From positions 512,001 to 576,000 of the forward strand of contig CAWIXE010000001.1 in assembly GCA_963840035.1 (NCBI GenBank): a stretch of 64,000 nt of DNA. Direction: 5' to 3'. Shown one piece after another: positions 36,061-54,250 of the stretch; within the stretch, counting starts at the first letter, position 1, and the number at the start of each line of letters is the position of its first letter. Origin of the DNA: a candidate division FCPU426 bacterium (GTDB lineage: Bacteria; Oederibacteriota; PGYV01; Palsa-1178). A program made the translations under genes and the position numbers. The notes beneath the pieces are model-generated. The model did no database searches. It was not told where the DNA came from and saw nothing but the letters and a program-made list of their open reading frames with translations.

Positions 36061-36447
36061 ATGAAAGGAATTTTCATTACAGCGGGTATTGTATTGGCGT
36101 TAGCGGGTTATTTTCTCATCGGTTCTGAAAACGTAAGCCAGATGTTGGAAAAATATTCCGTGGAAAAAATGAAGGGGACAGACCTCGAAGACGCAGCAGC
36201 TTTCAACATCAGGTACATGGATTTTACCGGAAAATACGACAGGTGCCTTGAGCTCATAAGCAAATTCAATGAAAGGTACGAGGAAAAATCAAAATATCTT
36301 CCTGAGTTTATGTTAACACAGGCAAGGATACTGGAACTGCGGCTTAAGACCGCCGCTGCCAGGGACATTTACCAGAAATATGTCGATACTTATCCGGACG
36401 CGGCGAATGTTAATGATATAAAATATAAAATCATGGAACTTAAATAA
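36061..36447 (+). CDS. Membrane-anchored TPR-like hypothetical protein
   Basis: RBS GGAGG; N-terminal TM; YQKYVDTYPD TPR-like end. Confidence 0.6.
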   Translation: MKGIFITAGIVLALAGYFLIGSENVSQMLEKYSVEKMKGTDLEDAAAFNIRYMDFTGKYDRCLELISKFNERYEEKSKYLPEFMLTQARILELRLKTAAARDIYQKYVDTYPDAANVNDIKYKIMELK

Positions 36448-36468
36448 GGCTTTTAAGCAGGAGGAAAA

Positions 36469-37647
36469 ATGAAGAAAAATTTCTTATTTCCGGCATTATT
36501 AACCATTTCATTATTTATACCCGCCTTTTTATTTGCCGCGGATGAAGCTGCTGCGGCTGCCGAAGCCGCTGCCATTACCGCGTCTCCTGAAGCCACTGCT
36601 GAAGCAACTGCCGCGGCCACTGTTGAAGCTACGGTTGAACCTACTGCCGTATCAACTGTTGAAACCACAGTTGAACCGACCGCCGAAGCCACTGCTGAAG
36701 CAACTGCCGCACCTACGACAATACCCACTGTAACCGAAAAAGTTGAAGTTGATACATCATATAAAGCAGATGATGAAGGCGTGGTTATACTCTCGCCAGG
36801 GGAAACATCCATGGAAGAACTTGAAAAATATATATTAACAAAAAGAAAACCCGCGCAACAGGAAGAAACCGACAACGGCGACGTGACAATGACATTTGAA
36901 CCCGAGTCAGCCGAAGAGGAAAACGGCGGGATCATACTCATGGAAGATGAGAAAAAAGGAAAGATGGAAAGCACGGGATATGTGATGGTTGAGAGGGGCG
37001 GGTTCATATCAGACAACTTCAAGGAAGACGGAATAGTATATTCGCTTGACGGCAGGGAAATACTCGCGGCCGGCGATAACGTATACATAAAGCTCACCGT
37101 GGGTAAAGGCGTTAAAAAAGGGACTGAATTCATAGTCTATGACGACTCGGAATCGGTTATAAACCCCATGACAGACGAAAATATGGGGAAAAAGATAAAG
37201 ATCGTCGCGGTAGGGAAAGTCAGGGGCAGCGCGGACGCCGATGACAACATATGGAAGGCAAAACTCACAAAGACCTACGAACCTGCCGGAAATAATTTTA
37301 AGATTAAGATCAGGAAAGAACTCAAGGATTATTACAACAAGCTTATCACAAAGATAAAGAAAAAACCGCAGCCGCTGGAAGGGTTCATCATAAGCGTAAA
37401 CGGCGGAACCCAGGGCATCAATAACAAGGACGTTGTTTACATAGACAGGGGACTTAAGGACGGGATCGCCCCCGGGGATATCCTGACCGTGGTAAGGCTC
37501 TCCGAGGACAAGGAAACCGGCGCCATGAAAAAATATAACACCATAGGAAAAGTCATGGTCATAAATACCATGAGGAGTTCCTCGGTAGGCATCATAAGCG
37601 GCCAGACTGATGTAATAAAAGTCGGGGACCTGGTAAAGACCAAATAA
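36469..37647 (+). CDS. Secreted protein with Ala/Thr/Glu linker and FlgT-C/TsaP-like beta domains
   Basis: Signal peptide; low-complexity linker; AAGDNVYI, INPMTDENMG, YIDRGLKDGIAPGD, IKVGDLV. Confidence 0.55.
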   Translation: MKKNFLFPALLTISLFIPAFLFAADEAAAAAEAAAITASPEATAEATAAATVEATVEPTAVSTVETTVEPTAEATAEATAAPTTIPTVTEKVEVDTSYKADDEGVVILSPGETSMEELEKYILTKRKPAQQEETDNGDVTMTFEPESAEEENGGIILMEDEKKGKMESTGYVMVERGGFISDNFKEDGIVYSLDGREILAAGDNVYIKLTVGKGVKKGTEFIVYDDSESVINPMTDENMGKKIKIVAVGKVRGSADADDNIWKAKLTKTYEPAGNNFKIKIRKELKDYYNKLITKIKKKPQPLEGFIISVNGGTQGINNKDVVYIDRGLKDGIAPGDILTVVRLSEDKETGAMKKYNTIGKVMVINTMRSSSVGIISGQTDVIKVGDLVKTK

Positions 37648-37705
37648 AACAACCGCCGGGCCCTTTTCCGGCGGAAACCGCAACCACCATATAGAGAGGT
37701 AAAAA

Positions 37706-39115
37706 ATGAAATTTGGCAGCAAGAAAAGCGTGCTCATTTTGTGCGGAATATTCGTAACACTTCTTGCCGTAAGTTTTACCAGGATAAACAGCAGTTATAT
37801 TTTCCTGGCAGCGGGCCTGGCCGCCTCGCTCATTTCCTTTAACGGAGGGTGGGTTAACGGGGTTTTCATGTCGCTGCTTTTTAATTTTACTTTTTACTCG
37901 CTCCACACCGCTATGGGCGTCCAGAGCATGGTTTTAAATATAGCGGTTTTTTCAGCTCTTTCTGTGCTTGCGGACAGGCTTAAGATAGGAAGCAATGCTC
38001 CGGTTCAGAAGGATTCAAATCCCGAGGAAAAAGCTTTTGTAAACAAAGTAATAAATTCGTTCATGCTTGGCCATGACATGGTACGCGAGATAAAAAAAGG
38101 GATAACAAGGAGCGAACTGCTCGCTCTATTCGCGCGCAATGTATCAAACTTGACAGGCGCCGACCAGGTGCTGGTTTATACCGGTGAAAACGCCCCGGAA
38201 GGAAAGTTAAAGCTCACGCTCTCCGCGGGAAAATACCAGGAGAGGGTCATAGAGCCTGAAGCTGAAATTGAGAGTGTACTCTGTTTGTCGGAGAAAAACC
38301 TTCCCGCAAATGAAGCCGGATTCATAAAGAGCGTCAGCGACGGGTACGCCATCATAATGCCGGTCAATGAAAAGGGAAAAGCCGGGGACATCGCTGTGCT
38401 TTACAAGGGAAATGAGTTCTCATACAGCGACATATACATAGCCGAATTTTTCAGCGCGCAGATATTTGTCATAATGGAAAAGCAGGAACTCCTTAAAAAG
38501 ATGTCGGGAAATTACGAGCGCATCATAGAAGCCCTCGCCCTGGCCATAGATACCAAGGACCACGAGACGCACGGCCACTCGCTGGCCACCATGAAGTACG
38601 CCGTAAAAATCGCGGAAAAAATGAACCTGCCTGATGAGGAAAGGGAAATGATAAAATACGCCTCCCTCCTGCATGACATAGGAAAGATAAACATAAGCAG
38701 CGCCATACTTAACAAGCCCGACAAGCTTACGGCTGAGGAATTTGACATCATAAAAAAGCACCCGGAAGAGGGCGTGCACATTTTGGACAGGATGGACATA
38801 TTCGGGGAGATACTCCCGCTTGTTATGCACCATCACGAGCATTTTGACGGCAAAGGCTACCCAAAGAAGCTAAAGGGGGACAGCATCCCGCTGGGGTCCA
38901 GAATTTGCTCGATTGCGGACGCGTACTCGGTGATGGTGGCGGACCGCCCCTACAGGAAAGCGCGCACAAGGGATGAGGCCATTAATGAGCTGAAACGCTG
39001 CTCCGGGACGCAGTTTGACAGGCAGATAGTGGATGTCTTCCTCGGGATAATAAAGGAAGAAAACACGCAGGAAGCGGCATTACATAATATTACCGGCGCA
39101 GGGCCGGTAAACTGA
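37706..39115 (+). CDS. Membrane-bound HD-GYP phosphodiesterase with GAF-like region
   Basis: KDHETHGHS, LLHDIGK, HHEHFDGKGYP, DRPYR. Confidence 0.92.
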   Translation: MKFGSKKSVLILCGIFVTLLAVSFTRINSSYIFLAAGLAASLISFNGGWVNGVFMSLLFNFTFYSLHTAMGVQSMVLNIAVFSALSVLADRLKIGSNAPVQKDSNPEEKAFVNKVINSFMLGHDMVREIKKGITRSELLALFARNVSNLTGADQVLVYTGENAPEGKLKLTLSAGKYQERVIEPEAEIESVLCLSEKNLPANEAGFIKSVSDGYAIIMPVNEKGKAGDIAVLYKGNEFSYSDIYIAEFFSAQIFVIMEKQELLKKMSGNYERIIEALALAIDTKDHETHGHSLATMKYAVKIAEKMNLPDEEREMIKYASLLHDIGKINISSAILNKPDKLTAEEFDIIKKHPEEGVHILDRMDIFGEILPLVMHHHEHFDGKGYPKKLKGDSIPLGSRICSIADAYSVMVADRPYRKARTRDEAINELKRCSGTQFDRQIVDVFLGIIKEENTQEAALHNITGAGPVN

Positions 39116-39918
39116 TGGATGAGTTAACCGCGTTTAATAATATTAAGGCGCTGATATTGAAGGAAAAATTCCTAGATGTCACGCAGTACAAGGAAAATTA
39201 CCTGAAACGAAGGCTGGCGGTGCGGATGAGGGCGCTTAACGCCCACACGTACACCGACTACCTCGCGGTGATGGAAAAAAACAAGAACGAACTGAACATA
39301 CTTTTGGATAAGCTGACGATAAACGTAACGCAGTTCTTCAGGGACCCAGAAGTCTTCGTGGAACTTGAGAATGTCATACTGCCGGAACTTTTAGCCGGCG
39401 GAAAGACCGACTTAAGGGTGTGGAGCGCCGGATGTTCCTCAGGCGAGGAGCCTTACTCGATTGCCATTTCCATAGAGGAGACAGCGGAGCGGCTCGGTTT
39501 GAAAAACCTGAGATATGAGATTTATGCCACGGACTTAGACGATGAAATACTGCGCAGGGCCCTTGAAGGCAAGTACGAAGGCAGGACCCTGGACAACATA
39601 GCGGAGTCACGTAAGAGAAAATATTTTGATTTTGACGGAAAAAAATATTCCGTTACGCAGAGGATACGCAAAAACATCCTGTTTTTTAAGCATAACCTGA
39701 TGGAACCGTACAAAAAGGATTTTTTTAACCTGGTTTTCTGCAGGAATGTCATCATTTATTTTACGAGGGAACTGCAAAAAACGGTGTTACAGCACTATTA
39801 TGATTCCATGAAGGAGGGCGCGGTACTGTACCTGGGAAAGACCGAGACCATGCTCATGGAACACAGGAATAATTTTGAATGTATAAATATTAAGGAAAGG
39901 ATATTCAGGAAAATATAA
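39115..39918 (+). CDS. cheR: Chemoreceptor methyltransferase CheR
   Basis: TINVTQFFRD, RVWSAGCSSGEEPYS, CRNVIIYF. Confidence 0.97.
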   Translation: MDELTAFNNIKALILKEKFLDVTQYKENYLKRRLAVRMRALNAHTYTDYLAVMEKNKNELNILLDKLTINVTQFFRDPEVFVELENVILPELLAGGKTDLRVWSAGCSSGEEPYSIAISIEETAERLGLKNLRYEIYATDLDDEILRRALEGKYEGRTLDNIAESRKRKYFDFDGKKYSVTQRIRKNILFFKHNLMEPYKKDFFNLVFCRNVIIYFTRELQKTVLQHYYDSMKEGAVLYLGKTETMLMEHRNNFECINIKERIFRKI

Positions 39919-41084
39919 TGGACACAGTACAGGACCACATAAATCTCGGGCTGGCCTTTGCCATGAGCAAGCGCTATGACCAGGCCATAAAAGAATTTGA
40001 AAAGGCCCTCAGCATAAACGCTGACGACGCAGAGGTACTAAAGCACCTGGCTAACGCCTACGTTTATAAAGGCGAATATGACCAGGCCATAAACTCATAT
40101 GAAAAAGCCCTCAAGATCAATCCCATGAACGCCGAGGTAATAATGAAACTCGGAAAATTATACGCGAACATGGCCAATTTTGACAAGGCTCTGGTGCAGT
40201 ATAAAAAAGGGCTTGAGATCAACTCTACAGACTCAGCCTTAAGGCACGCGCTGGCAGACCTGTACGTGAAGATGGGAAAAAACGCCGAGGCCGAGGCCGA
40301 GTACAGGAAGATGATAGAAAAGGAACCGGCTAATATGGAGCTTATTTTCAAGCTCGGCTATATATTTGAATCCGAGAAAAAATACGCCGAAGCAGCGGTG
40401 GAATACGAGAAAGTCGTAAAGGCAAACCCTAAAAGCCCCGGCATTAATTCCATGCTTGGAAATGTTTACAGGGAATTAAAGCAGTTTGACAAGGCCATAG
40501 AGCATTATGACAAGGCCGTTAAGATAAATCCCAGGGATACCGCTGTGGCTTTTAACCTGGGGGTCCTGTATTTTGAAAGCGGGCAGAACGAAAAGGCCAT
40601 AACGCAGCTGGAGATAGCCAAGAAAAACAAGTTTAAAAATTCGGAAATATTCATAATCCTTGGGGAAGTGTACTCCAGGCTCGGCAGAAAAAAAGAAGCG
40701 CTTGAGGAATATAAAAAGGTAGCCGAGCTCGGGAGCGCGGACGCGGAAACGCATAAAGCCCTCGGGTTCATATACATGGAAGAGGACCAGCTCGACGACG
40801 CCCTCGCCGAATACAAAAAGGCCATGGAAACAAAATCAGACGACCCCGCGATATATGAGAATATGGGGCAGATATACTATAAAAAAATAATGTATAAGGA
40901 AGCGAAGGAATATTTCTCAAAGGCCATAGAGGCCGGCAGGGAAAGCGCGGACATGTTCTACAAGCTGGGGAACATATATATGAAGGAATCCAACCCGGAA
41001 AAGGCCAAGGAAAACTGGAACAAGTCGCTTAAGATATACCCGGAGAACGAGATAATAAAAAAGAATCTGAAACTGCTCGGCTGA
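39918..41084 (+). CDS. TPR-repeat protein
   Basis: Regular 34-aa LG...A...Y.KA..INP units along the whole length. Confidence 0.93.
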   Translation: MDTVQDHINLGLAFAMSKRYDQAIKEFEKALSINADDAEVLKHLANAYVYKGEYDQAINSYEKALKINPMNAEVIMKLGKLYANMANFDKALVQYKKGLEINSTDSALRHALADLYVKMGKNAEAEAEYRKMIEKEPANMELIFKLGYIFESEKKYAEAAVEYEKVVKANPKSPGINSMLGNVYRELKQFDKAIEHYDKAVKINPRDTAVAFNLGVLYFESGQNEKAITQLEIAKKNKFKNSEIFIILGEVYSRLGRKKEALEEYKKVAELGSADAETHKALGFIYMEEDQLDDALAEYKKAMETKSDDPAIYENMGQIYYKKIMYKEAKEYFSKAIEAGRESADMFYKLGNIYMKESNPEKAKENWNKSLKIYPENEIIKKNLKLLG

Positions 41085-41120
41085 GTTTAAAGTCAGGTTT
41101 TAAATTGCAGGGGGAAATGA

Positions 41121-41720
41121 ATGGAACTTTATAAAAAACAGGACAAGAGTTTGGGCGAACTCCTAATACAGGCGGGATTTATAACAAACGAGCAGCTGAA
41201 AGAATGCCTGCTGGAACAGCACTCGACAGGCGAGCCCCTGGGGAAAATCCTCATATCAAAGCATTATGTCAGGGAAGAGAACATCATAAACGTCTTAAAG
41301 GGTATGCTCGTGGTGGTGGTCGAGGTTAATAATGAAAAATTCGGAATAGAGATCATATACGCCAGGGAAATTATAAAATACAAAAAAATATCCGCCCTTC
41401 CGAACCTGCCGGACTACATCCTGGGCATGATGTCGCTTCGGGAGGATGTCATCCCGGTAGTCAGCCTTAATAAGAAAATTTTCAACAGGGAAGACGCCAT
41501 AACAGAAAACTCAAAGATAATAATTATAGACGGCAAAAAGGACCTGATGGGTGTTTTAGTGGATGAAGTCATAAACGTAAAGAATTACCAGTCGTCGGAT
41601 TTTGCCAATATCACAAAATACACCTTTACCATAGACAGAAAATACATCGCCGGGCTGATAAAGGACGGCGACGGGGTAATAACCCTAATAAAGCCGGAAA
41701 TCCTTTTTGAAGGCAGGTAA
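41121..41720 (+). CDS. cheW: CheW with N-terminal MshEN-like domain
   Basis: SLGELLIQAGFITNEQLKECLLEQ-HSTGE-PLGKIL, then ALPNLPDYILGMMSLREDVIPVVSL and GVLVDEV. Confidence 0.85.
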   Translation: MELYKKQDKSLGELLIQAGFITNEQLKECLLEQHSTGEPLGKILISKHYVREENIINVLKGMLVVVVEVNNEKFGIEIIYAREIIKYKKISALPNLPDYILGMMSLREDVIPVVSLNKKIFNREDAITENSKIIIIDGKKDLMGVLVDEVINVKNYQSSDFANITKYTFTIDRKYIAGLIKDGDGVITLIKPEILFEGR

Positions 41721-41722
41721 GC

Positions 41723-43927
41723 ATGGAAAAACCGGACAAAACGCCTTCAAAGGAATCAAAGTCTGAAAATGACGCCATAGAGCTTAATAATGTGGGCGTA
41801 TATTATTATTCCAAGGGAATGTATCAGGAAGCCATCGAGCAGTTCAAAAAAGCGCTGACTATAAACCCGTCATACGGACAGGCGCAGGGAAATTTAAAAG
41901 CAGTCAATAAGCAGACCGGCATTTACGACAGGGCAATATCCGCGTACAGGAAGGCGGTACAGCTTTATCCTTCGGACCCTGAGGCGAACTTCAACCTTGG
42001 AAAGTCGCTGTGCTACACGGGCGATTATGAAAGCGCGGTAAAGTCGTTAAAGAGGGCGCTCGAGCTCAACCCCGAGCACTTAATGGCGCAGAACCTTCTG
42101 GGAGTAATTTACAAGAATATGGGGGATTACGACCTGGCTGAAAAAGTTTTCAGGGAAGCCATGAAAAAATTCCCGAATTACGCGGAGTTAAGGAACAACC
42201 TTGGCGAGACGCTTTATAAAAAAGGGGCCTATGACGAGGCGGAAGAACAGCTGAAAAAGGCCATCCAGCTTAACAAGGAATACGCGCTGGCATACTATAA
42301 CATAAGTTTTGTTTACGGCGAAACAGGCAAGGACGAGGACGCGGGCATATGCTATAACCGCGCGGTGGAACTTAACCCCTCATTCATCAAATCAAACAAA
42401 TCCCTGGTCATCGACTATTACGAGTCAAACGCCGCCTCAAACTTAAAACGCGGCGAGGAAGTCGAAAAGATGGACGACGGAAAAAGGAAGGAAGAAGCCT
42501 ACTTCAACCTCGCGAAGGTGTATAAGCTCAAAGGCTACACTGATGACGCCATCACCCAGATAAAATCGGCCATTACTTTCAATTCCAAACAGCCCCAGTA
42601 CTATAACTTTTTCGGAGAGCTGCTCATAAAAAAAGGAATACTCAAGGAAGCCATTGAAATTTTCAAGCAGACCATAAAGTTAAAACCCGACATGGTGGAG
42701 GCAAAAGTAAATATTGCCGTAGCTTACAGGGAAATGAAGGAATTTGAAAAGGCCAGGGCGGTTCTTGACGCCATACAGGAGGAAAACCCGGAGTATACCA
42801 GGGTGGAACTCGAGCGCGGAATAATCCTTTATAAGGAAGAGCGCATAGAGGAAGCCATCACCCTTCTTTTAAAGCACCTTGAGACCGAGCCTTATGATGA
42901 CGAGGCAAGGTATTTCCTGGGGGTCTCATACTACAAACTGAAAAAATATGACGAGGCCGTGACCGAACTGCGCAAAGCCCTCGAGCTGCTCCCGAATTAC
43001 ATAAAGAAACCGGACATAAACCTCTACCTCGGCCTGGTCTTAACCGACAAGGGCAGGAATGAGGAGGCCATAATAGAGTACCAGAAGGCCATAGCTGTCC
43101 AGCCAAATAACGCGGTCGCGCATAATTCAATGGGCGTGGCCTTTAAAAACATGGGGAATGTGGACCGCGCCATAGAGGAATATCAAAAGGCTGTGGAAAT
43201 AGATAAGGAGTATTACAAGGCATATAACAACCTCGGGGTAGCATATTATAAGAAGAACTTTTTTAAGGAAGCCCAGAAATACTTCGAGCAGGCCCTGAAA
43301 ATCAACCCGGAGTATTCTGTGGCAAAAAAGAACCTGGATGCCGCGCAGAAAAAGGACGTGGTTTTCAAGGAAACCATTGAAAAATTAAGGGAAAAACAGG
43401 CTGAGGCGCCGGTGGACAGCATAGTCGCCTACGATCTTGGCAACGCGTACAGAAATACTGGACAATTGCAGGAGGCTATTGTAGAATATAAGAAAGTGCT
43501 TGCGGCAAGCCCCGGAAATACCGAGGCATTAAACAGCGTAGGGTCTGTGTATTTTGACACAGGCGACTATGATAATGCCGTAAAAGCCTTCATAACCGTC
43601 GTATCTCAGGACCCGAAAAACGCCAAAGGGCATCTTAACCTGGCCAACGCCTATTTTAAAAAGGAATGGTGGGACGAAGCCGACATCGAGTACCATAAAG
43701 CCCTTGAAATGAACGCTGACTTCGCGGAAGTGTATTTTAAGCTCGGCGAGGTATACAGGTGGAAGGGCTGGTGGGACGAGGCCATTGATATGTGGAAAAA
43801 ATACGTGGAAAAAGCGCCCGACACGGAGATGGCAAGGCTGGCGCAGGAAAATTTAAGGATGGTGGAAGTGTGGAAAAAAGAACTCATGCTTTCTCCTTCT
43901 TCAAGCAGGAAAAAGCTCATAAAATAA
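41723..43927 (+). CDS. Large TPR-repeat protein
   Basis: Many TPR units (NNLG..YY.KG, AHNSMG, AYNNLG). Confidence 0.93.
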   Translation: MEKPDKTPSKESKSENDAIELNNVGVYYYSKGMYQEAIEQFKKALTINPSYGQAQGNLKAVNKQTGIYDRAISAYRKAVQLYPSDPEANFNLGKSLCYTGDYESAVKSLKRALELNPEHLMAQNLLGVIYKNMGDYDLAEKVFREAMKKFPNYAELRNNLGETLYKKGAYDEAEEQLKKAIQLNKEYALAYYNISFVYGETGKDEDAGICYNRAVELNPSFIKSNKSLVIDYYESNAASNLKRGEEVEKMDDGKRKEEAYFNLAKVYKLKGYTDDAITQIKSAITFNSKQPQYYNFFGELLIKKGILKEAIEIFKQTIKLKPDMVEAKVNIAVAYREMKEFEKARAVLDAIQEENPEYTRVELERGIILYKEERIEEAITLLLKHLETEPYDDEARYFLGVSYYKLKKYDEAVTELRKALELLPNYIKKPDINLYLGLVLTDKGRNEEAIIEYQKAIAVQPNNAVAHNSMGVAFKNMGNVDRAIEEYQKAVEIDKEYYKAYNNLGVAYYKKNFFKEAQKYFEQALKINPEYSVAKKNLDAAQKKDVVFKETIEKLREKQAEAPVDSIVAYDLGNAYRNTGQLQEAIVEYKKVLAASPGNTEALNSVGSVYFDTGDYDNAVKAFITVVSQDPKNAKGHLNLANAYFKKEWWDEADIEYHKALEMNADFAEVYFKLGEVYRWKGWWDEAIDMWKKYVEKAPDTEMARLAQENLRMVEVWKKELMLSPSSSRKKLIK

Positions 43928-43946
43928 CAGGGGACCGGCAAATAAA

Positions 43947-45901: not shown

Positions 45902-47164
45902 ATGGCGGGAAAACACGACGACTGGTTGAGAAAGATAGTAATGATAAACGCAGGGGCCGGAATCGGGTCGGCCCTTATATTCGGATTATTATGCGCGCTG
46001 CTGCATATAAAAACGGACAGTGTGATATTTTTTGTCCTGTTACTTATACTTGCCGGGGTTTTAATGGCCGTTAATTCCATAGCGGGGATGAAGATAGGCG
46101 CTGATAAATTTGACAAGCTCGCGGTAAAATTTGAAAAAATAGCGTCAGGAGACCTCACGGATGAAGTCAAAATAAAGGGCGGTTTTGTAAAGTCCATAAC
46201 AATGAGCGTCAATAAAATGATAGACGACCTCCGGAACATGCTCGGAAAACTCGACGATTCCACGGGCGTCATTATGAACCTGGCCGAGAATTTATCGGCT
46301 TCCACGCAGGAGATAAACGCCTCCGCGGAGGAAATATCCTCCACGGTCCAGCAGATAGCGCGCGGCGTGGAGCAGCAGGCGGAGAGGACAGTGGAGACTT
46401 CCCGCATCATGGAAAACATGTCGAACTCCATACAGGAAGTGGCGCAGAAGTCAGAAGAAGTGCTCGGCGTGGCAAAATCAGCCAAGGACGCCTCGGAGCA
46501 CGGCATACATTCCGTGGACGAGACCGTAAAAAAGATGGAAGAGATAGTCATAGTGACAAAGAAAGCCAAGGAATCCATAGAGGAACTGAAAGTTTATTCC
46601 GAAAAAATCGAGGAAGTCGTCAACATAATAACTGATATAGCGGACCAGACCAACCTTCTGGCTTTAAACGCCGCCATTGAGGCTGCGCGCGCCGGCGAGG
46701 CGGGTAGGGGATTTGCGGTTGTCGCCGACGAAGTAAGGAAGCTCGCGGAAGGCTCGGCAGGAGCCGCGAAGGAAATCACGCGCCTAGTGGAGGACATACA
46801 CGAGAAGACTGAGAATGTCGTAAAGGACATAGTCGTCGGCGTGAAGGAAACTGAAGAGGGAAAACAGGTTGCCAAGCAGAGCGGGGACGCCCTGCGCAAG
46901 ATAGACGACATAGTAAGCAGGGTTGTATCGCTTTCAAACGAGATTACAAGCCTCTCAAAAGCGCAGGCAGAGGACACGGACAGGGTGGTAAAAGCAGTCG
47001 AGGAAATAGCGGCCGTAGCCGAGGAAACAGCTGCAGGAACGCAGCAGGCATCGGCCTCCACGCAGCAGCAGACGGCATCCATGGAAGAAATCGCGGCGCA
47101 GGCGCAGGAGCTGGCCCAGACCGCGGAAGTATTAAAAGGCATGATGTCAAAGTTCAGGAGATAA
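45902..47164 (+). CDS. Methyl-accepting chemotaxis protein lacking a periplasmic sensor domain
   Basis: Two adjacent TMs, [42 protein letters not shown]. Confidence 0.96.
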
Positions 47165-47167
47165 AAA

Positions 47168-47662
47168 TTGGAAAATAAGATTGTAGGGTTTAAGCTTAGG
47201 GATGATGAATTCGCCTTCGATATCATGAAGGTTGTGGAAATCATCAGGCTTAAAAACCAGATAACCGAGGTGCCCACGGCGCCAAAGTTCATAGAAGGGG
47301 TCATAAACTTAAGGGGCAAGATCATCCCCATCATAGACCTGCGCAAGCGTTTTAATATGGAGGATAAGGAAGCCACCAAGCAGGCCAGGATAATAATCAC
47401 GGAATTCCTGAAAAACCAGCTCGTCGGGGTGGTGGTGGACGAAGTTACCAAAGTCTTAAACGTCAGGCCTGAGGAAGCGCTTCCGGCGCCGCCGTCTGTT
47501 ACAGGCGTGGGAGGAAGGTACATACAGTCGCTGGTTAAGACAGGCGAAAAAATAATAGTCCTGCTCGACATAGAAAAAATCTTCACCGAACAGGAGCAGG
47601 AAGACATAAAGGAATTGCTACAATCCGAAGGAGGCAAAATTGAAGAAAGTTCTAATCGTTGA
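47168..47662 (+). CDS. cheW: CheW
   Basis: VPTAPKFIEGVINLRGKIIPIIDLR, GVVVDEV. Confidence 0.96.
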   Translation: MENKIVGFKLRDDEFAFDIMKVVEIIRLKNQITEVPTAPKFIEGVINLRGKIIPIIDLRKRFNMEDKEATKQARIIITEFLKNQLVGVVVDEVTKVLNVRPEEALPAPPSVTGVGGRYIQSLVKTGEKIIVLLDIEKIFTEQEQEDIKELLQSEGGKIEESSNR

Positions 47663-48002
47663 TGATACCAAATTCATGAGGAACATCCTGGCCTCCATAC
47701 TTAAGAAAAAAGACCTGGAGGTCGTGGGAGAAGCCGTGAACGGCAGGGAAGCCATAGAGAAGTATAAGGAATTAAGGCCGGACCTTGTCACTATGGACAT
47801 AATAATGCCCGAGATTGACGGCATACAGGCAGTGAAGGAAATAATGAAGATAGACCCGGCGGCAAAGATACTTATGTGCAGCGCCATGGGACAGCAGGCT
47901 CTGGTAATAGAAGCCATACAGGCGGGCGCCAAGGATTTTGTGATCAAACCTTTCCAGCCGACAAGGGTTTTGGAAGCAGTCGACAGAACGTTCCAGGAGT
48001 AA
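47640..48002 (+). CDS. cheY: CheY response regulator
   Basis: LIVDDTKFMR, TMDIIMPEIDG, SAMGQQ, KPF; TTG start after GGAGG. Confidence 0.95.
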   Translation: MKKVLIVDDTKFMRNILASILKKKDLEVVGEAVNGREAIEKYKELRPDLVTMDIIMPEIDGIQAVKEIMKIDPAAKILMCSAMGQQALVIEAIQAGAKDFVIKPFQPTRVLEAVDRTFQE

Positions 48003-48008
48003 ACCATA

Positions 48009-49073
48009 ATGGGAAAGATCAGGGTCCTTGTAGTGGATGACTCGGCCTTCATGAGGAAAATAATTCCGGACATGTTAAATGAAGACAGCTCCATAGAGGT
48101 CATAGCCACGGCAAAAGACGGCAAGGACGCTTTTAAAAAGGTTATGGAATTAAAGCCGGATGTTGTCACCCTTGACGTTGAAATGCCCGGCATGGACGGG
48201 TTACAGACGCTCGGATACATCATGAGCGAACAGCCCACCCCGGTAATCATGCTCTCCGCGTACACCCCCCAGGGAGCCGAGACCACTATCAAATCATTGC
48301 AGTACGGCGCCGTGGATTTTGTGTGCAAGCCTTCCGGAGAGATATCACTCGACATAAAAAAAGTGCAGGCCGAGCTTGTGGAAAAAATAAAGGCCGCGAA
48401 AAACATAGACACATCCACCGTTAAATTCCTCCTTCCTGACAACTCGGAGCCGGCAAAAAAAGAAAAAATAACAGCCCGCAAGAATGAACTGCTCGTCATC
48501 ATAGCCGCCTCAACCGGCGGGCCCAGGGCCCTGACAGAAGTGGTCCCAAACATACCGCGCGACCTTCCGGCGGCATTTCTCATCATACAGCACATGTCCG
48601 AAGGCTTTACAAAGACGCTGGCGGAGCGCTTAAACTCGCTTTCCATGATACAGATAAAGGAAGCCGAGCACGGCGAAGTGATCAAAGCCGGAAACGCCTA
48701 CCTGGCCCCGGGCGATTATCACATGGAAATTTCCAAAAGCGGCGACGAATACTGCATAGACTTAAACCAGAAACCATCCAGGCTCGGAGTGAGGCCATGC
48801 GCTGACATGACTTTTTTCTCGGCGGCTAAAGTTTTTGGCGGAAAAATAATCGGGGTTGTTTTAACGGGAATGGGCAAGGACGGCACTGCCGGAGCTGAAA
48901 TGATAAGGCAGAAAAACGCGAGAATCATAGCGCAGGATAAGGAAACAAGCGTCATATACGGCATGCCCAAGTCAGTGGCTGAAAAAGGGTATGTGGACAG
49001 GGTGCTGCCGATTACATCGATTGCCGCGGCCATTACTGACGAGATAAAAAGGGCATTAGAGGAAGTCAAATAA
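48009..49073 (+). CDS. cheB: CheB methylesterase (REC plus catalytic domain)
   Basis: VVDDSAFMR, ASTGGP, IQHM, LTGMGKDG. Confidence 0.97.
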   Translation: MGKIRVLVVDDSAFMRKIIPDMLNEDSSIEVIATAKDGKDAFKKVMELKPDVVTLDVEMPGMDGLQTLGYIMSEQPTPVIMLSAYTPQGAETTIKSLQYGAVDFVCKPSGEISLDIKKVQAELVEKIKAAKNIDTSTVKFLLPDNSEPAKKEKITARKNELLVIIAASTGGPRALTEVVPNIPRDLPAAFLIIQHMSEGFTKTLAERLNSLSMIQIKEAEHGEVIKAGNAYLAPGDYHMEISKSGDEYCIDLNQKPSRLGVRPCADMTFFSAAKVFGGKIIGVVLTGMGKDGTAGAEMIRQKNARIIAQDKETSVIYGMPKSVAEKGYVDRVLPITSIAAAITDEIKRALEEVK

Positions 49074-49224: not shown

Positions 49225-51267
49225 ATGAACACAGAAGATTATAAAGAAGCGTTTTTAGAGGAAGCCGCTGAGAATGTAAACATTCTCAACAAAGCCTTGC
49301 TTGCCTTTGAAAAAAACATAGATGACTTAACGCCGTTAAACGAACTTTTCCGCGCGGCGCATACCTTAAAAGGCATGTCAGCCACCATGGGCTACGATAA
49401 GATGGCGGAATTCACCCACATGCTCGAAGAAGTCATGGATAAGATACGCGGGGGAATGCTCGCGCCCGGCCTCGACGTGGTGAACCTGCTTTTTAAGTCC
49501 ATAGATATAATGCAGGAATTTGTGGAAAACATTAAAACAAAAAACGTGGATTTTGCCGATGGCTACCGGGAAACCATAGACCGTATAAAGCAGATAAAGG
49601 GAACCTCGTCCGAAGAAATAAAAACCGCCCCGGCAAAACCGCAGCCGGCCCCGGCCATTCCCGGCGCCCGCGCCCTGGCAGGCGTGTCCATAGACCTTGA
49701 AATAGAAGCAATGGCCCTTGAAGAAGCGGCAAAGCAGTCCATGAAGGTTTTTAAAATACGCGTGGCCGTGGCAAGGTCTTGCGCCTTTAAAAATGTGCGC
49801 TCATTTATGGTATTCAGGAACCTCTCCGAAAAAGGGGAAATAATAAAAGCAAACCCGAAAGCCAAGGACATAGAAGAGGGTAATTTTGATTACGCGTTCA
49901 CCCTGGGGTATGTGACAAGCTTATCAGCTGATGAGGTGAACAAGCTCATCTCCAGGATCGCCGAGATTGACAGCGTCGAAGTCGAGGAAATAAAGCTTCC
50001 GGAAAATCCGGCCGGGGCCCCGGCATCGGCGCAGGAAGACAGGGATGAAAAACAGGAACACGCAGATGAAAAAAAAGAAAAAGCGCCGAAGGACAAAAAA
50101 GGCCCGCTTTCACAGAGCGTGAGGGTGAATATAGAAAAACTTGACTCCATGATGAACTTAGTCGGGGAGCTTGTGATAAACAAGATAAGGCTCGACCAGA
50201 TAACCAAGAGCAAATCATTCGGGGAGTTATCGCCCACGGTCGCTGAATTTGACAGGATCATAGACGCGCTGCAGATAGAAGTAACGGATGTCCGCATGCT
50301 TCCCGTGTCGCACATATTCGACAGGTACCCGAGGGTCATCAGGGATTTAGCCGCGGACGCAGGCAAACAGATAGAAGTGGAAATAATCGGAGGAGACATT
50401 GAAATAGACAGGACAGTGCTTGAGGAGATAAACGAGCCTGTCATGCACTTAATCAGGAATTCCGTGGCGCACGGCATAGAGATACCTGACAAGAGGGAAA
50501 TGGCGGGAAAGAACAGAAAAGGCGTGATAAGGATGTCCGCGCGCAGGGAACGCAACTCAGTTATCATAGAAGTATCGGACGACGGCGCAGGGGTTAACGT
50601 GGAAAAGGTCAGAAAAAAAGCGGTGGAAAAGGGCATAATGCCTGCGGATAAAATAGAGAGTTTGTCTGAAGAAGAAGCGGTAAATCTAATAACCCTCCCG
50701 GGTTTTTCCACGGTAGATAAGGTTAATACGGTATCAGGAAGGGGCGTCGGCGTCGACGTTGTAAAAACAAAAGTCGAGGCGTTCGGCGGTATCTTTAAGA
50801 TAGAAAACCATCCCGGCGAGGGAATGAAGTCGATTCTAAAACTGCCGCTTACGCTGGCAATCATACAGGCGCTTTTAGTCAAGGCGGGCGGCGGAATATA
50901 CGCCATACCGGTCATACATACCATAGAAACAGTGGAACTCCCGATAACCGAGATAAAAGTCATTCAGGACCGCAGGGTGCTGGTGCTGCGGGATGAAGTT
51001 GTGCCTGTGCTCTCGCTGGCTGAGCTTATAGGCAAGCCCAGGGACGTGCATGATGTGGTGCACATGGTCATCATAGAGTCGCGTGAAAAGAAGATAGCCA
51101 TGGAAGTGGAGGCTGTAATCGGCCAGCAGGAAATAGCCATCAAAAGCCTCGGTGAATTTTTAAAGTACGCAAAGGGTTTTTCCGGAGTGACAATACTTGG
51201 CGACGGGTCGATAAGCCTTATAGTGGACGTGCAGTCGCTCATTGAGGCGAATATAAAGCTGGTGTAA
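49225..51267 (+). CDS. cheA: Chemotaxis histidine kinase CheA
   Basis: FRAAHTLKG, P2 domain, MNLVGELVI, HLIRNSVAHG, SGRGVGVDVV, LPLTLAI, C-terminal CheW domain. Confidence 0.98.
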   Translation: MNTEDYKEAFLEEAAENVNILNKALLAFEKNIDDLTPLNELFRAAHTLKGMSATMGYDKMAEFTHMLEEVMDKIRGGMLAPGLDVVNLLFKSIDIMQEFVENIKTKNVDFADGYRETIDRIKQIKGTSSEEIKTAPAKPQPAPAIPGARALAGVSIDLEIEAMALEEAAKQSMKVFKIRVAVARSCAFKNVRSFMVFRNLSEKGEIIKANPKAKDIEEGNFDYAFTLGYVTSLSADEVNKLISRIAEIDSVEVEEIKLPENPAGAPASAQEDRDEKQEHADEKKEKAPKDKKGPLSQSVRVNIEKLDSMMNLVGELVINKIRLDQITKSKSFGELSPTVAEFDRIIDALQIEVTDVRMLPVSHIFDRYPRVIRDLAADAGKQIEVEIIGGDIEIDRTVLEEINEPVMHLIRNSVAHGIEIPDKREMAGKNRKGVIRMSARRERNSVIIEVSDDGAGVNVEKVRKKAVEKGIMPADKIESLSEEEAVNLITLPGFSTVDKVNTVSGRGVGVDVVKTKVEAFGGIFKIENHPGEGMKSILKLPLTLAIIQALLVKAGGGIYAIPVIHTIETVELPITEIKVIQDRRVLVLRDEVVPVLSLAELIGKPRDVHDVVHMVIIESREKKIAMEVEAVIGQQEIAIKSLGEFLKYAKGFSGVTILGDGSISLIVDVQSLIEANIKLV

Positions 51268-51334
51268 TACAATTTTATATTTGAAATTTTCAATTTTAAA
51301 TTAATTGCAAGAAAGACGAAATAAGGAGAATACA

Positions 51335-51958
51335 ATGGCGGACGGAAGTTTACAGAATCTTTCGGACATACAGACAGACGCGTTAAAAGAGGTCGGGAAC
51401 ATAGGCGCGGGGCACGCTGCCACGGCGCTTTCCCAGCTTATAAAGAAAAAAATAATGATATCAGTGCCGACGGTAAAAGTCATCAAGTCGCAGGACATAG
51501 AGACACTTCTGGGCGACCCGAACACGCTGGTGGCCGGCATCATTATGAATGTATTGGGCGATATAACCGCGAAAATCCTTCTTCTTTTAACCAGGGAATC
51601 GGCCCTTTCGCTTGTGGATATGCTACTGCAGAAACCCGTCGGGTCCACAAAAGTATTATCCGAGGTGGGAAACTCCGCCATAAAGGAAACAGGAAACATC
51701 CTAGCCGGGGCATACATGAATTCTTTGAACGAGTTTCTGGGGCTCATGCTTTTGCCGTCGGTCCCGAATCTCGTATTTGATATCTCAAGCGCGATACTTT
51801 CATCGCTCTCTGACGGTTTTGACGGGATGTCACAGCACATCCTTTCCATAGAAACGCAGTTTTCGGAAGCAAATGAAAAGGTCATTAAAGGTTATTTACT
51901 CCTGATACCGGACGAGCCTTCGGTGAAGGTGTTGTTGCAGTCGATAAAGGTTGGGTAA
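51335..51958 (+). CDS. cheC: CheC phosphatase (second copy)
   Basis: DALKEVGNIGAGHAATALSQL and SAIKETGNIL; RBS AAGGAG. Confidence 0.95.
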   Translation: MADGSLQNLSDIQTDALKEVGNIGAGHAATALSQLIKKKIMISVPTVKVIKSQDIETLLGDPNTLVAGIIMNVLGDITAKILLLLTRESALSLVDMLLQKPVGSTKVLSEVGNSAIKETGNILAGAYMNSLNEFLGLMLLPSVPNLVFDISSAILSSLSDGFDGMSQHILSIETQFSEANEKVIKGYLLLIPDEPSVKVLLQSIKVG

Positions 51959-51968
51959 GCAGTAAACC

Positions 51969-52050
51969 GTGCGGGATGGATCGTGCGGGGTGCGGGATGG
52001 ATCGTGCGGGGTGCGGGATGGATCGTGCGGGGTGCGGGATAAGGCGTGCG
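51969..52050. repeat. 21-bp tandem repeat made of heptamers
   Basis: (gtgcggg atggatc gtgcggg) x3, then gtgcggg ataaggc gtgcg. Confidence 0.9.
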
Positions 52051-52126
52051 TAATTTAAAATACGCACGGACGGCGCACTGCGGGCGCACGAATTTTCAGG
52101 CACGTATCACGTTATAGGGAGAAATA

Positions 52127-54250
52127 ATGGCCGTTTTCGCTTTAGACATAGGAACCCGCAAGGTAGCCGGCATATTAGGCGAGCTTCGCGGAGAGAGAGT
52201 GCACATCATAGATGCCGTTTTAATGGAGCATGAAAAACGCGCCATGATAGACGGGCAGATACACTCCATAGAGGGCGTCACAGACATTGTGCGCAAAATA
52301 AAGAACGAGCTTGAAATGCGCAACGGCATTATAATTGAAAAGGTCACAACAGCGCTCGCGGGCAGGAGCCTTCATACGGAAAAGACGGATGTTATCATAG
52401 AAAAAAAGGGCGATGTCACGAAGGAAGACCTGGCTTACCTGGAGATGTTAAGCGTAAAGCAGGCAAATGAAAAGCTGACCGGCCAGAAAAAACTTGATTA
52501 TTACTGCGTGGGTTATTCCACGGTTTCATTCTCCGTCGACGGCGAGGTAATGAAGTCCCCGCTGCAGCAGCTGGCAAAAAGGTCGCTTGGCATTTCCACC
52601 ATAGTTACATTCCTTCCCAAACCGGTATTTGACTCCATGGTCACGGTCTTAAACAACTGCGGCCTGGTCATAGACGCGATAACGCTTGAGCCAATAGCGG
52701 CGTTATCAGTCACAATCCCGGAGGACATGAGGCTTTTAAACCTCGCGCTTGTGGACGTGGGCGCGGGAACATCGGACATCGCGATAACTGACAAGGGTAA
52801 AATAACAGCGTATGGCATGATACCAAAAGCAGGGGACGAGATAACTGAAGCGATCTGCCATGAATTCCTGGTGGATTTTAACACGGCGGAAAAAGTAAAG
52901 AGGAAAGCTGAAAGCCCGGAAGAAGCCGGGGCTAAAGACATATTTAATAACCCTGTGATTGTTACCGCGGAAAAATTCCGCGAGGCGGTATTTGCAAAGA
53001 CAGAAGAAGTGGCCAAAGATGTTGCAGACGGAATTTTAATGTTAAACGGAAAACAGCCGCAGGCGGTTGTCATGGTAGGCGGCGGAAGTTCGCTTATGCT
53101 TTTACGCGAGCGCGTGGCCGCGAATTTAAGCCTGCCGGTGGGCAGGGTCGGCGCGAGGACCCCGGAGACCATTACAAACATAGAAAACCTGCCTGACGTG
53201 TTAAAGGGCACTGAAGGAATAACCCCCCTTGGCATACTCGAGACCGCGCTTTTCAAAAGGGGCATAGGATTTGTGGATGTCACTGTAAACGGCGAAAAAG
53301 AATACGTCATAAACCTCGACCAGGAGATAAAAGTCGTGGACGTGCTGGCGTCGCGCGGCATGGAAATGAAGAGGCTTTACGGAAAACCCGGAAACTCGCT
53401 TACCTTTACATTTAACGGAGAGCTTAAGATACTGCGCGGGAGCCACGGCGAACACGCGAAAATATATGTCAACAACGACGAGAGACAGCTTGAAGACAGG
53501 GTATATAAAGGCGACGCCATATTCATAACGTCGGCAAAAGACGGCGCTTCAGCCTCGGCCATAATAAGGGACATCATAGGCGAACACTACGTCACAGTAG
53601 TTGAGATAAACGGCAAGAAACACGAGATAGCGCCGCTGGTCCTGCGCGAAGGCAGGGAAGTCACAATAGACGAGCCTTTAACGGACAGGGCGGATATTAC
53701 AGCGGAGAGGATAGACATGGCCGCGGACGTGCTTGCAAGGGCCGGCTATGAGATAAAGGCGTCGAACGAGCGCGACATCATAATAACAGTCAACGGCGAA
53801 CCGCAGGTTTTAAAGCAGAGGAACTACCAGCTGAAGGTAAACGGCGTAGAAGTCGCGGCCGATTATAAGCTGCGCAACATGGACAGGGTGGAATACAAGG
53901 ACACGCCGGCGTATTACAGGGTAAAAGACGTGCTGAAAACCTCGCGCAAGCACAAGATAAGCGTCATCATAAACGGCAAGCCTTTTGAGATGGAACAGGA
54001 AAATTCCGGAATATTCATGAACGGAAAGAAAGTCTCGGAGGACGAGTTCCTCATTAACGGCGCCTCCATAGACATAAAATCAAACGAAGAAAAAATGATA
54101 CTATCCTCGGTATTTAAGTTCTACCCCATAGACACGCAGAGAATCAAAGGAAGGCTCCTGGAGCTGAAGGTTAACGGCGAAAAAGCCGGCTACACCACCC
54201 AGATAACCGAAGGCGCAAACATAGAAATAAACTTCACAGACGCGGTATAA
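52127..54250 (+). CDS. FtsA/PilM-like actin-fold ATPase with C-terminal beta-grasp (ThiS/ubiquitin-like) repeats
   Basis: ALDIGTRKV, LEPIAA, LVDVGAGTSD, VGGGS; C-terminal half has recurring (V/I)NG motifs ending LKVNGEKAGYTTQITEGANIEI. Confidence 0.8.
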   Translation: MAVFALDIGTRKVAGILGELRGERVHIIDAVLMEHEKRAMIDGQIHSIEGVTDIVRKIKNELEMRNGIIIEKVTTALAGRSLHTEKTDVIIEKKGDVTKEDLAYLEMLSVKQANEKLTGQKKLDYYCVGYSTVSFSVDGEVMKSPLQQLAKRSLGISTIVTFLPKPVFDSMVTVLNNCGLVIDAITLEPIAALSVTIPEDMRLLNLALVDVGAGTSDIAITDKGKITAYGMIPKAGDEITEAICHEFLVDFNTAEKVKRKAESPEEAGAKDIFNNPVIVTAEKFREAVFAKTEEVAKDVADGILMLNGKQPQAVVMVGGGSSLMLLRERVAANLSLPVGRVGARTPETITNIENLPDVLKGTEGITPLGILETALFKRGIGFVDVTVNGEKEYVINLDQEIKVVDVLASRGMEMKRLYGKPGNSLTFTFNGELKILRGSHGEHAKIYVNNDERQLEDRVYKGDAIFITSAKDGASASAIIRDIIGEHYVTVVEINGKKHEIAPLVLREGREVTIDEPLTDRADITAERIDMAADVLARAGYEIKASNERDIIITVNGEPQVLKQRNYQLKVNGVEVAADYKLRNMDRVEYKDTPAYYRVKDVLKTSRKHKISVIINGKPFEMEQENSGIFMNGKKVSEDEFLINGASIDIKSNEEKMILSSVFKFYPIDTQRIKGRLLELKVNGEKAGYTTQITEGANIEINFTDAV

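Follow-up and report, generated by a model that had tools for sequence, protein, structure and literature searches.

An F1-like chemotaxis operon with a conserved accessory module in a candidate division FCPU426 bacterium

Analysis of a stretch of 64,000 nucleotides (nt) from a candidate division FCPU426 bacterium (assembly GCA_963840035.1, contig CAWIXE010000001.1, positions 512,001 to 576,000; hereafter the window) revealed a chemotaxis operon which, judged by its gene content, comprises a single F1-like pathway together with a lineage-specific accessory module. The cluster consists of 18 close-packed open reading frames (ORFs), all on the forward strand between positions 36049 and 54250 of the window, and the coordinates of every one of them were verified. 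In this order, they encode a small TPR-like protein, a secreted protein of 392 amino acids (aa), an HD-GYP protein, CheR, a TPR protein of 388 aa, an MshEN-like-CheW fusion, a TPR protein of 734 aa, a P-II protein, CheY1, CheC1, CheD, a methyl-accepting chemotaxis protein (MCP), CheW, CheY2, CheB, CheA, CheC2, and an FtsA-like protein. Pfam (reporting threshold E<=0.001) named 17 of the 18 ORFs, with the 392-aa ORF remaining without a family and the TPR match of the small 132-aa protein staying below the cut-off. A preceding description of this DNA made from the letters alone (the sequence-only reading) had reported a same-strand cluster of about 18 kb with a full Che core and interleaved accessory genes, and both Pfam and the coordinates bore this out. 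The same is true for its touching or overlapping genes, since the gaps between neighbours range from -23 to +168 nt and amount to 37 nt or less at 13 of the 17 junctions.

The source genome (3.46 Mb in three contigs, 98.3% complete, no runs of N) contains three CheW domains, all of which lie inside the cluster, and tblastn revealed a single copy each of CheA (one full-length), CheR, CheD, and the 707-aa FtsA-like gene, with five MCP genes counted genome-wide. Since the cluster holds all CheW domains and there is only one CheA, it is the sole chemosensory system of this genome and not an extra one. The idea of an "alternative" pathway beside a flagellar one found no support in this form. The only Che system present appears F1-like, and a flagellar motor with a FliM carrying a CheY docking peptide is encoded in the same genome.

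The core genes were assigned as follows. CheR (39115..39918; CheR E 1.3e-54 and CheR_N) overlaps both neighbours by 1 nt, and CheY1 (44413..44778; Response_reg E 2.3e-28, top NCBIfam model CheY_Halo) is followed by the phosphatase CheC1 (44780..45403; Pfam CheC, top NCBIfam model CheC_Thtogales), CheD (45409..45888; CheD E 7.7e-30, top NCBIfam model CheD_Thtga), and a 44H-like MCP of 420 aa with a transmembrane hairpin (45902..47164; MCPsignal E 9.8e-47). Further downstream are CheW (47168..47662; CheW E 4.6e-38), CheY2 (47640..48002; Response_reg E 1.4e-31), which overlaps cheW by 23 nt, CheB (48009..49073; CheB_methylest E 1.4e-64 plus a receiver domain), CheA (49225..51267; Hpt, P2, H-kinase_dim, HATPase_c, and CheW domains), and a second phosphatase, CheC2 (51305..51958; Pfam CheC). 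The best NCBIfam model for CheA was CheA_Halo with 509 bits versus 370 bits for the E. coli-type model, a proxy for its class. CheC1 (positions 12 and 111) and CheC2 (positions 25 and 124) both keep two D/S-x3-E-x2-N-x22-P sites, which we take to be the CheC active-site motif, and CheY1 and CheY2 are similar to each other, with the same CheY model scoring best for both. In the 420-aa MCP, a hydrophobic stretch at residues 12-67 was read as two N-terminal helices with a loop of few residues in between. The sequence-only reading had called this receptor sensor-less, which is right in so far as it has no periplasmic domain, but it is a two-helix membrane hairpin and not a soluble protein. Residues 219-418 (C-terminal arm) align without a gap over 200 residues to residues 109-308 of TM1143 from Thermotoga maritima (2ch7), and the alignment of the N-terminal arm shows a 7-residue gap within a weakly similar stretch.

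The accessible part of PMC10746217 describes the F1 class by the presence of CheC and CheD, by cognate receptors of the 44H type, and by the lack of a fixed gene order, and pairs the ACF class with 40H receptors. Two CheC and one CheD were detected here with Pfam and NCBIfam. Given CheC and CheD, an MCP that looks like a 44H receptor, best models from Thermotoga and Halobacterium, and an encoded FliY-type switch protein, the core is well supported as F1-like by its sequences, an informal placement made from these features. Systems of the F1 class normally drive flagella or archaella. Three of the five MCPs are short, the hairpin receptor of the operon among them, and two others of 601 and 615 aa possess about 390-400 residues in front of the signalling domain. 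These two make it unlikely that only internal signals are read, as had been proposed from the sequence, although internal inputs as such are plausible in view of the P-II site residues, the MshEN-like domain, and the HD-GYP protein.

For the analysis of gene conservation, 41 related genomes (G numbers below) were searched, and the resulting counts are descriptive, these kin not being independent of each other. Orthologues of the MshEN-CheW fusion with 55-63% identity carry the NCBI names Candidatus Goldiibacteriota or Goldbacteria bacterium, and by their sequences the relatives and the host probably belong to Candidatus Goldiibacteriota. Counting full-length proteins only and setting aside partial matches to other kinases in G025 and G026, we identified a CheA orthologue in 29 genomes. 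The FtsA-like gene was present in 28 of these (not in G036) and in none of the other 12, and the same numbers, 28/29 (not in G040) and 0/12, were obtained for MshEN-CheW. Out of the 28 genomes with the FtsA-like gene, 15 loci around it were examined, and the complete order of 18 genes was displayed by six (G002, G010, G012, G015, G018, and G022). The remaining loci are partial owing to contig ends or module splits: the edge of the locus falls inside the HD-GYP gene in G003, the locus of G008 begins at a contig end, and the HD-GYP gene is the only one missing from the order in G009. In G013, the genes for the small TPR protein, the 392-aa protein, CheR, the 388-aa TPR protein, and MshEN-CheW are located on a different contig from those running from CheY1 to the FtsA-like protein, and neither the 734-aa TPR protein nor P-II was found on either stretch. 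The genomes G024 and G031, from another order, have retained the series 392-aa-CheR-TPR-MshEN-CheW-P-II-CheY-CheC-CheD-MCP-CheW-CheY-CheB-CheA-CheC-FtsA-like. Even the high-GC genomes G028, G034, and G036 keep the series CheR-TPR388-MshEN-CheW-TPR734-P-II-CheY-CheC-CheD-CheW-CheY-CheB at 30-67% identity, with cheA-cheC-ftsA-like at a separate locus in G028 and G034; the part of the series from CheR to CheD is conserved in its order at 31-67% identity. Since the identical order recurs in relatives that share 25-95% protein identity, the arrangement is not due to chance. MshEN-CheW, the two large TPR proteins, P-II, and the FtsA-like protein are thus integral to the system and co-inherited with its core throughout the phylum, and the conservation of accessory gene order, which the sequence-only reading had named as a check, was indeed found.

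The MshEN-like-CheW fusion comprises 199 aa (41121..41720), and its CheW domain covers residues 64-196. The N-terminus of the protein (residues 11-60) scored 61.5 bits with the NCBIfam model NF053729 "c-di-GMP_motif, MshE-related" (cut-off 38), which upholds the earlier call of an MshEN-CheW fusion; Pfam MshEN was not reported for this protein at E<=0.001. As described in the accessible part of PMC5013675, MshEN consists of two 24-residue motifs separated by a spacer of 5 residues, with Arg and Gln contacting cyclic di-GMP (c-di-GMP). Of the motif positions, the hydrophobic ones, Gln33, and both Gly turns are conserved, save that the protein of our genome carries His at the second turn. In all 12 orthologues compared, the Arg that opens motif 1 is replaced by Ser or Thr and the Gln that closes motif 2 by a hydrophobic residue, and each sequence shows 2-4 deviations from the published relaxed motif. 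Fusions of MshEN to CheA and CheX are listed in PMC5013675, and the word CheW is absent from its main text. Outside the phylum, a scan with a pattern taken from the MshEN part only, the counts of which are lower bounds, revealed at least 77 loci from other lineages (L113-L189). Among the matches listed, four (L116, L125, L126, and L171) reach past residue 120 into the CheW domain, and at these four tblastn did not find the accessory module.

The P-II gene (43947..44285; 112 aa, PF00543 E 5.6e-27) encodes a che-linked paralogue that keeps Q39, K58, TGRIGDGKIF, and RIRTGE (R101, R103), and the residues of the nucleotide and 2-oxoglutarate sites are conserved in 14 che-linked orthologues. Its T-loop is divergent and variable between lineages, with L, E, and V at positions 46, 47, and 51 and thus no Tyr51, and the scores with the NCBIfam equivalogs for GlnB and GlnK (112 and 109.5 bits) were below the cut-offs of 202 and 181. 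Two further P-II genes exist in the genome, each 38% identical to the che-linked copy. On sequence grounds, the protein belongs to the P-II fold family and has the ATP/ADP-binding residues, but displays neither the canonical GlnB/GlnK T-loop nor an equivalog-level score. The third gene of the cluster (37706..39115; HD_5 E 2e-38) encodes a predicted membrane-anchored HD-GYP c-di-GMP phosphodiesterase of 469 aa with N-terminal hydrophobic segments and intact catalytic motifs, LLHDIGK and HHHEHFDGKGYP (HHEHFDGKGYP). It was found between the 392-aa gene and cheR at seven of the nine loci from the same order that cover this junction and at none of five loci from other orders, and it is more peripheral to the system than the other accessories. 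About 13 GGDEF proteins and nine further HD-GYP paralogues are encoded genome-wide. One diguanylate cyclase gene with a GGDEF domain (443 aa, 2419-3750) is located in the window about 32 kb upstream of the operon.

The last gene of the operon (52127..54250) encodes an FtsA-like actin-fold protein of 707 aa, which scored below the cut-off of the ftsA model TIGR01174 (E 1.5e-31; 109.9 bits versus 175.85). In an AlphaFold2 (AF2) model based on 54 sequences (pLDDT 87.7), residues 1-375 have E. coli FtsA (7q6d; E 1e-27, TM 0.84) as their top match in the PDB, and the top Foldseek matches in general are FtsA structures with TM 0.77-0.85, ahead of PilM. None of the 54 sequences deviates from the nucleotide-binding motifs DxGT, DxGxGT, and GGG. 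Residues 380-707 fold into five small beta-rich modules in the model, which ends in beta strands, and the C-terminal 328 residues gave only sub-threshold Pfam matches to TGS, Ub-Mut7C, and SAMP2, with Atlas neighbours carrying ThiS/TGS. Based on this combination of secondary structure, sub-threshold matches, and Atlas leads, the modules are probably of the beta-grasp type. A separate FtsA-like ORF of 428 aa is present elsewhere in the genome. At least 559 loci of the FtsA-like family were found in the genome collection, and 80 were kept for a check of their neighbourhoods. In five of these, che genes lie beside the FtsA-like gene, two of the contigs being from Methanolobus, two from Omnitrophota, and one from a close relative; no che cluster was detected by tblastn at the other 75, and nine of nine inspected loci from Bacillota or Thermotogota displayed housekeeping neighbours without che genes. 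The trio cheA-cheC-ftsA-like, always in that order, was identified in Omnitrophota (L063, L098) and Methanolobus (L035, L039), and the cheC2 gene is always located between cheA and the FtsA-like gene.

Three genes of the module encode TPR or TPR-like proteins. The gene of the 388-aa protein (39918..41084; many TPR families) overlaps cheR by 1 nt and follows it directly in all relatives at 39-76% identity, and the 734-aa protein (41723..43927; TPR families) shares 39-42% identity over about 720 aa even with its counterparts in the high-GC genomes G028, G034, and G036. As neither has a signal peptide or a transmembrane segment, both are predicted to be cytoplasmic. An identity with PilW or Tgl was considered for the TPR proteins and rejected, some of their NCBIfam scores being high but promiscuous and a signal peptide and lipobox being absent. 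The small protein at the start of the operon (36049..36447; 132 aa) is predicted to be membrane-anchored by a hydrophobic segment at residues 1-27, has a sub-cut-off match to TPR_6 (20.7 bits), and is conserved in its position in relatives of the same order at 25-43% identity. The neighbouring gene (36469..37647), left without a name in the sequence-only reading, codes for the 392-aa protein, which has a signal-peptide-like N-terminus, no Pfam or NCBIfam family, and no further copy in the genome according to tblastn. Its N-terminal 166 residues, with a linker rich in Ala, Thr, and Glu, are of low complexity and low pLDDT, and the AF2 model reaches a pLDDT of about 90 over residues 167-392. For this C-terminal module, the best PDB match was TsaP bound to PilQ (6ve2_O; Foldseek E 4.9e-7), with VIA Z 13.9, rmsd 4.2, 209 of 225 residues aligned, and 16% identity, followed, with Z 10.0, by the LPHT ring of the Vibrio flagellum, of which FlgT is a part. 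According to the model, the protein has two FlgT-like periplasmic domains as in TsaP; a LysM domain was not found by Pfam, even at E<=5.

The statement of the sequence-only reading that no flagellar genes are in the window is true, but two flagellar clusters are located elsewhere in the genome (C2:1038000-1072808 and C2:393000-404600; loci L191, L193, L194, and L197), and a comparison of flagellar with type IV pilus genes showed that both machineries are encoded. The first cluster starts with MCP-...-FlgC-FliE-FliF-FliG-FliH-I-J-K-FlgD-FlgE-MotA-MotB-FliL and continues with FliM-FliY-FliOPQR-FlhB-FlhA-FlhF-FlhG-PilZ-FliA. The MCP gene at its head (404 aa, C2:1071594-1072808, L191:5595-6809) immediately precedes flgC-fliE-fliF-fliG in the same orientation, with two unnamed small ORFs in between. 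The second cluster comprises FlgF-G-A-H-I-J-M-N-K, with J being FlgJ-like. In this cluster, flgH is split over two frames at C2:~399,070-399,140 (L197:6040-6160), where an ORF of 116 aa covers only the N-terminal part and the remainder of FlgH continues in a different frame shortly 3' of a G6 run, a frameshift or an assembly error. Taken together, the two clusters provide all parts of the hook-basal body along with the export gate, MotAB, the FliM/FliY switch, FliA, FlgM, and FlgK. Pilus genes are represented by pilT, pilM, pilO, and pilQ at C2:79935-89001 and by seven T2SSE-type ATPases. A PilT-like ATPase gene at C1:1131612-1132664 is situated inside an open frame of 761 aa, about twice the usual length. 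A further, conserved cluster (C2:1220908-1234349, L190) carries genes for an sCache-HAMP-SpoIIE phosphatase, a STAS protein, an anti-sigma-type kinase, a 409-aa MCP, PilZ, a PQQ-type beta-propeller, a HAMP protein, DnaJ-TPR, Hsp70, and an MshEN-T2SSE ATPase. Two contigs of Goldbacteria-labelled metagenome-assembled genomes match this cluster collinearly over 8-9 genes at 34-81% protein identity, which is a second pointer to Candidatus Goldiibacteriota. A receptor gene is here placed next to the genes for a secretion or pilus ATPase, c-di-GMP-binding by its domain, and a chaperone pair.

We favour, with slightly better than even confidence, the FliM/FliY switch of the flagellar-type motor as the target of the pathway in this genome. 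The N-terminus of FliM, DDILSDGELDALL / MADDILSDGELDALL, constitutes the docking peptide for phosphorylated CheY (CheY-P), which was also seen in 11 of 11 primary FliM proteins read from other genomes with a CheA orthologue (Che+). A primary FliM is encoded in 31 of the 41 genomes, that is, in 22 of the 29 Che+ genomes and nine of the 12 others. Several observations weigh against this target. The motor is thus kept in 9/12 genomes without a CheA orthologue, among them the one-contig genome G027, which has a primary FliM and neither flagellin nor a CheA orthologue, and at least seven of these nine FliM proteins carry the docking peptide as well (the other two N-termini were unreadable from the chosen start codon), so that the peptide is not discriminating. 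No match to Flagellin_N, Flagellin_C, or FliD_C was obtained in the 98.3%-complete source genome, a custom hidden Markov model for flagellin/FlgL run unfiltered against all of its ORFs gave a best E of 0.068, and flgK is followed by htrA and lnt, with the usual flgL-fliC-fliD-fliS not there. FlgL and FliD were sought in this genome only and Flagellin_N in all 41, of which seven had a match, a strong one in six, with flagellin in six of the 29 Che+ relatives. In the six strong cases, the flagellin gene shares its contig with a divergent second FliM, part of an additional flagellar set, and this FliM lacked the docking peptide in all four copies read. Finally, G028, which is 100% complete, revealed an entire Che system and no FliM, FlhA, or flagellin.

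The last of these findings, together with the absence of flagellin from 23 of 29 Che+ genomes and the motors without CheA, speaks for a pathway that steers type IV pili or another envelope machine, with the motor running independently, an explanation we regard as rather unlikely. The links to a pilus apparatus would be the TsaP-like protein, the MshEN-like domain, and the FtsA/PilM-like ATPase. For such an output, the operon's first large gene encodes the sole TsaP-like protein found in the genome, with its Z of 13.9 to PilQ-bound TsaP, pilT, pilM, pilO, and pilQ are present beside the T2SSE-type ATPases, and in G028 and G034 the cheA-cheC-ftsA-like trio is located about 3 kb downstream of pilT-pilM-(N)-O-Q-aroC. 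In these two genomes, however, housekeeping genes separate the pil-aroC stretch from cheA, and in our genome no pil gene lies in or beside the cluster. The LPHT ring as the second-best fold of the TsaP-like protein fits a flagellar collar equally well. Moreover, the components are F1-like and not Tfp/ACF-like, the MCP matching a 44H receptor where PMC10746217 names 40H for ACF systems, FliM keeps its docking peptide, a FliY-type switch phosphatase is present, and an MCP gene heads the fla operon. The proposal of a non-flagellar output in the sequence-only reading therefore found some backing in the missing flagellin, G028, the TsaP-like gene, and the nearby pil genes, but is opposed by the motor and its FliM/FliY switch; and with respect to what that reading had named as speaking against itself, the accessories are conserved with the core, whereas flagellar motor genes are present.

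A division of the output, with CheW and one CheY serving FliM/FliY and MshEN-CheW, the TPR proteins, P-II, and the second CheY serving pili or a c-di-GMP or metabolic response, would agree with the conservation of CheY, CheC, and CheW-type genes as pairs across the phylum, with the presence of both motility machineries, and with the splits of the cluster, i.e., the CheR-CheB module and the cheA trio at separate loci in G028 and G034 and the genes up to MshEN-CheW on a different contig from CheY1-to-FtsA-like in G013. There is only a single CheA and a single CheB/CheR set, however, and the CheY paralogues are close, have the same best model, and neither was assigned to a target, which makes a dual output appear quite improbable to us. 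That HD-GYP, TPR, P-II, and FtsA-like proteins are mere passengers, sharing the operon but serving, e.g., nitrogen control or cell division, we consider highly improbable. The FtsA-like family does occur in housekeeping neighbourhoods without che genes (9/9 loci in Bacillota/Thermotogota and 75/80 overall), and several relatives have no HD-GYP gene in the cluster. Yet MshEN-CheW and the FtsA-like gene co-occur almost perfectly with CheA (28/29 versus 0/12), the genes remain in order at identities as low as about 30-40%, also where the cluster is split, two other P-II genes and the 428-aa FtsA-like ORF are found elsewhere in the genome, and the MshEN-like domain and CheW are parts of one protein.

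With the FliM/FliY switch as the favoured target, we propose that the five MCPs, two of which are long enough for a periplasmic domain, would signal via arrays coupled by plain CheW and MshEN-CheW. Through the latter, c-di-GMP or a similar ligand would influence the coupling, and the membrane-bound HD-GYP protein may lower the local level of this ligand. P-II could convey the ATP/ADP status, possibly also that of 2-oxoglutarate, through its divergent T-loop to a Che partner, the likeliest being the adjacent 734-aa TPR scaffold or MshEN-CheW. CheR may act with the translationally coupled TPR protein in the manner of a split FrzF, CheY-P would dock on the N-terminal peptide of FliM and be dephosphorylated by CheC1, CheC2, and FliY, and the FtsA-like ATPase may be a nucleotide-dependent scaffold acting with CheA and CheC2. 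The TsaP/FlgT-like periplasmic protein might link the operon to an envelope-spanning machine. A further-reaching picture, of a phylum-wide machine in which a P-II sensor, a second-messenger-binding CheW, and an FtsA-like ATPase with a beta-grasp tail are true array parts and which steers a filament-less flagellar-type motor or pili and not a classical flagellum, is put forward tentatively, and we consider it doubtful. As the MshEN-like domain lacks the Arg and one Gln of those that contact c-di-GMP, its binding of c-di-GMP is putative, and the binding partners given for P-II and the FtsA-like protein are proposals.

Thermotoga maritima and Bacillus subtilis are examples of the F1 class, and their systems resemble the one described here in CheA-W-Y, CheB/R/C/D, a FliM/FliY switch, and, as far as its receptor looks 44H-like, the type of receptor. 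In contrast to them, the present operon holds the MshEN-like-CheW, two large TPR proteins, P-II, HD-GYP, and the TsaP/FlgT-like and FtsA-like proteins, and the search of the genome for flagellin gave no gene. The Dif pathway of Myxococcus xanthus, which is pilus-linked, has an MCP with two transmembrane segments and almost no periplasmic loop and a CheC-type phosphatase. By this description, it shares with our cluster the hairpin MCP, the CheC-type phosphatase, and a possibly pilus-related output; unlike Dif, the cluster also has CheB, CheR, CheD, and a 44H-like instead of an ACF-type receptor and is the sole system beside a flagellar motor. FrzF of M. xanthus is a CheR-TPR methyltransferase, and here, too, CheR is tied to a TPR module, with adjacent genes overlapping by 1 nt, but as two separate proteins and not as a fusion. 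Inputs of c-di-GMP to chemotaxis are known from MapZ-CheR1 of Pseudomonas aeruginosa and from the PilZ-bearing receptor Tlp1 of Azospirillum. As in these cases and in MshEN-CheA/CheX, a second-messenger-type module is attached to a chemotaxis component; different from MapZ-CheR1 and Tlp1, the MshEN-like module sits on the CheW coupler and has two ligand-contact residues replaced.

With FtsA and PilM (7q6d, 1e4g, 5eou), the FtsA-like protein shares the FtsA fold of its N-terminal 375 residues in the model and the invariant nucleotide motifs. Unlike FtsA, it has about 330 residues of five beta-rich modules instead of a C-terminal amphipathic membrane-targeting helix, and its gene follows cheA-cheC and is not associated with ftsZ. 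A ParA-type ATPase, PpfA, is encoded in a che operon of Rhodobacter sphaeroides and positions cytoplasmic arrays. As a cytoskeletal-type ATPase within a che operon, it may serve as a working analogy for the FtsA-like protein, which has an actin-like and not a ParA fold, so that a role in array positioning is suggested by analogy only. TsaP carries an N-terminal LysM peptidoglycan-binding domain. The 392-aa protein resembles TsaP (6ve2) and FlgT (Vibrio H/T-ring 8z5n, 3w1e) in the predicted two-domain periplasmic fold of residues 167-391, and differs from them in having no LysM by Pfam, an identity of 16%, and a gene located in a che operon.

Regarding the surroundings of the operon, a putative sigma-70-like promoter (35987..36015, + strand; TTGACA-17-TAAAAT, 11/12 matches, extended -10 TG) is the best promoter-like site and lies about 35 nt 5' of the first ORF, a consensus match only; in the scans for promoters and terminators, the site totals were not above those of shuffles. 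A search of sequencing runs listed no RNA run that contains the sequence, and the one DNA run listed shared a small part of its words. Directly upstream (33218-35531), a REP-associated tyrosine transposase (33218-33769), an IS30-family transposase (34109-35200), and a cold-shock-domain ORF (35157-35531) were identified. On the other side, a low-GC patch (0.42) at 54286-56600 separates the FtsA-like gene from dprA and contains genes for a 228-aa signal-peptide protein, a VapC-type toxin ORF, and, on the minus strand, a YkwD-like protein. It looks like an insertion, because dprA directly follows the FtsA-like gene in G028. The 228-aa ORF (54332-55018), which has no relatives in the neighbours' loci and lies in this patch, was considered as a 19th gene of the operon and rejected.

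In the open-access literature, no paper on an MshEN-CheW fusion was found among the papers listed, going by titles and abstract openings, and the searches for a chemotaxis operon with an FtsA-like protein and for P-II (GlnB) in a che operon gave nothing and nothing relevant, respectively. The accessible part of PMC7031533, on Goldbacteria, mentions flagellar genes and contains the word chemotaxis 0 times, and the main text of a census of CheW domains (10.1101/2022.05.07.491037) is without MshEN, T2SSE, TPR, and c-di-GMP. Judging from the sequences, the core thus appears to be of a known, F1-like kind and the add-on module to be new to the open-access literature searched, in agreement with the sequence-only reading, which had spoken of an undescribed system.

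Chemotaxis is among the best understood signalling systems, and to our knowledge neither a P-II protein nor a CheW-borne second-messenger sensor nor an actin-like ATPase is known to belong to it. With such accessories fixed in the sole Che pathway of a candidate phylum, testable candidates are at hand for the routes by which metabolic state and c-di-GMP may enter the arrays. Two bacterial phyla and one archaeal genus have the FtsA-like/beta-grasp gene behind cheA-cheC, and its product may have gone unnoticed as a general accessory of systems of the F1 type. Furthermore, the presence of a motor without detectable flagellin in most genomes, one of them closed, raises the question of what this motor turns.

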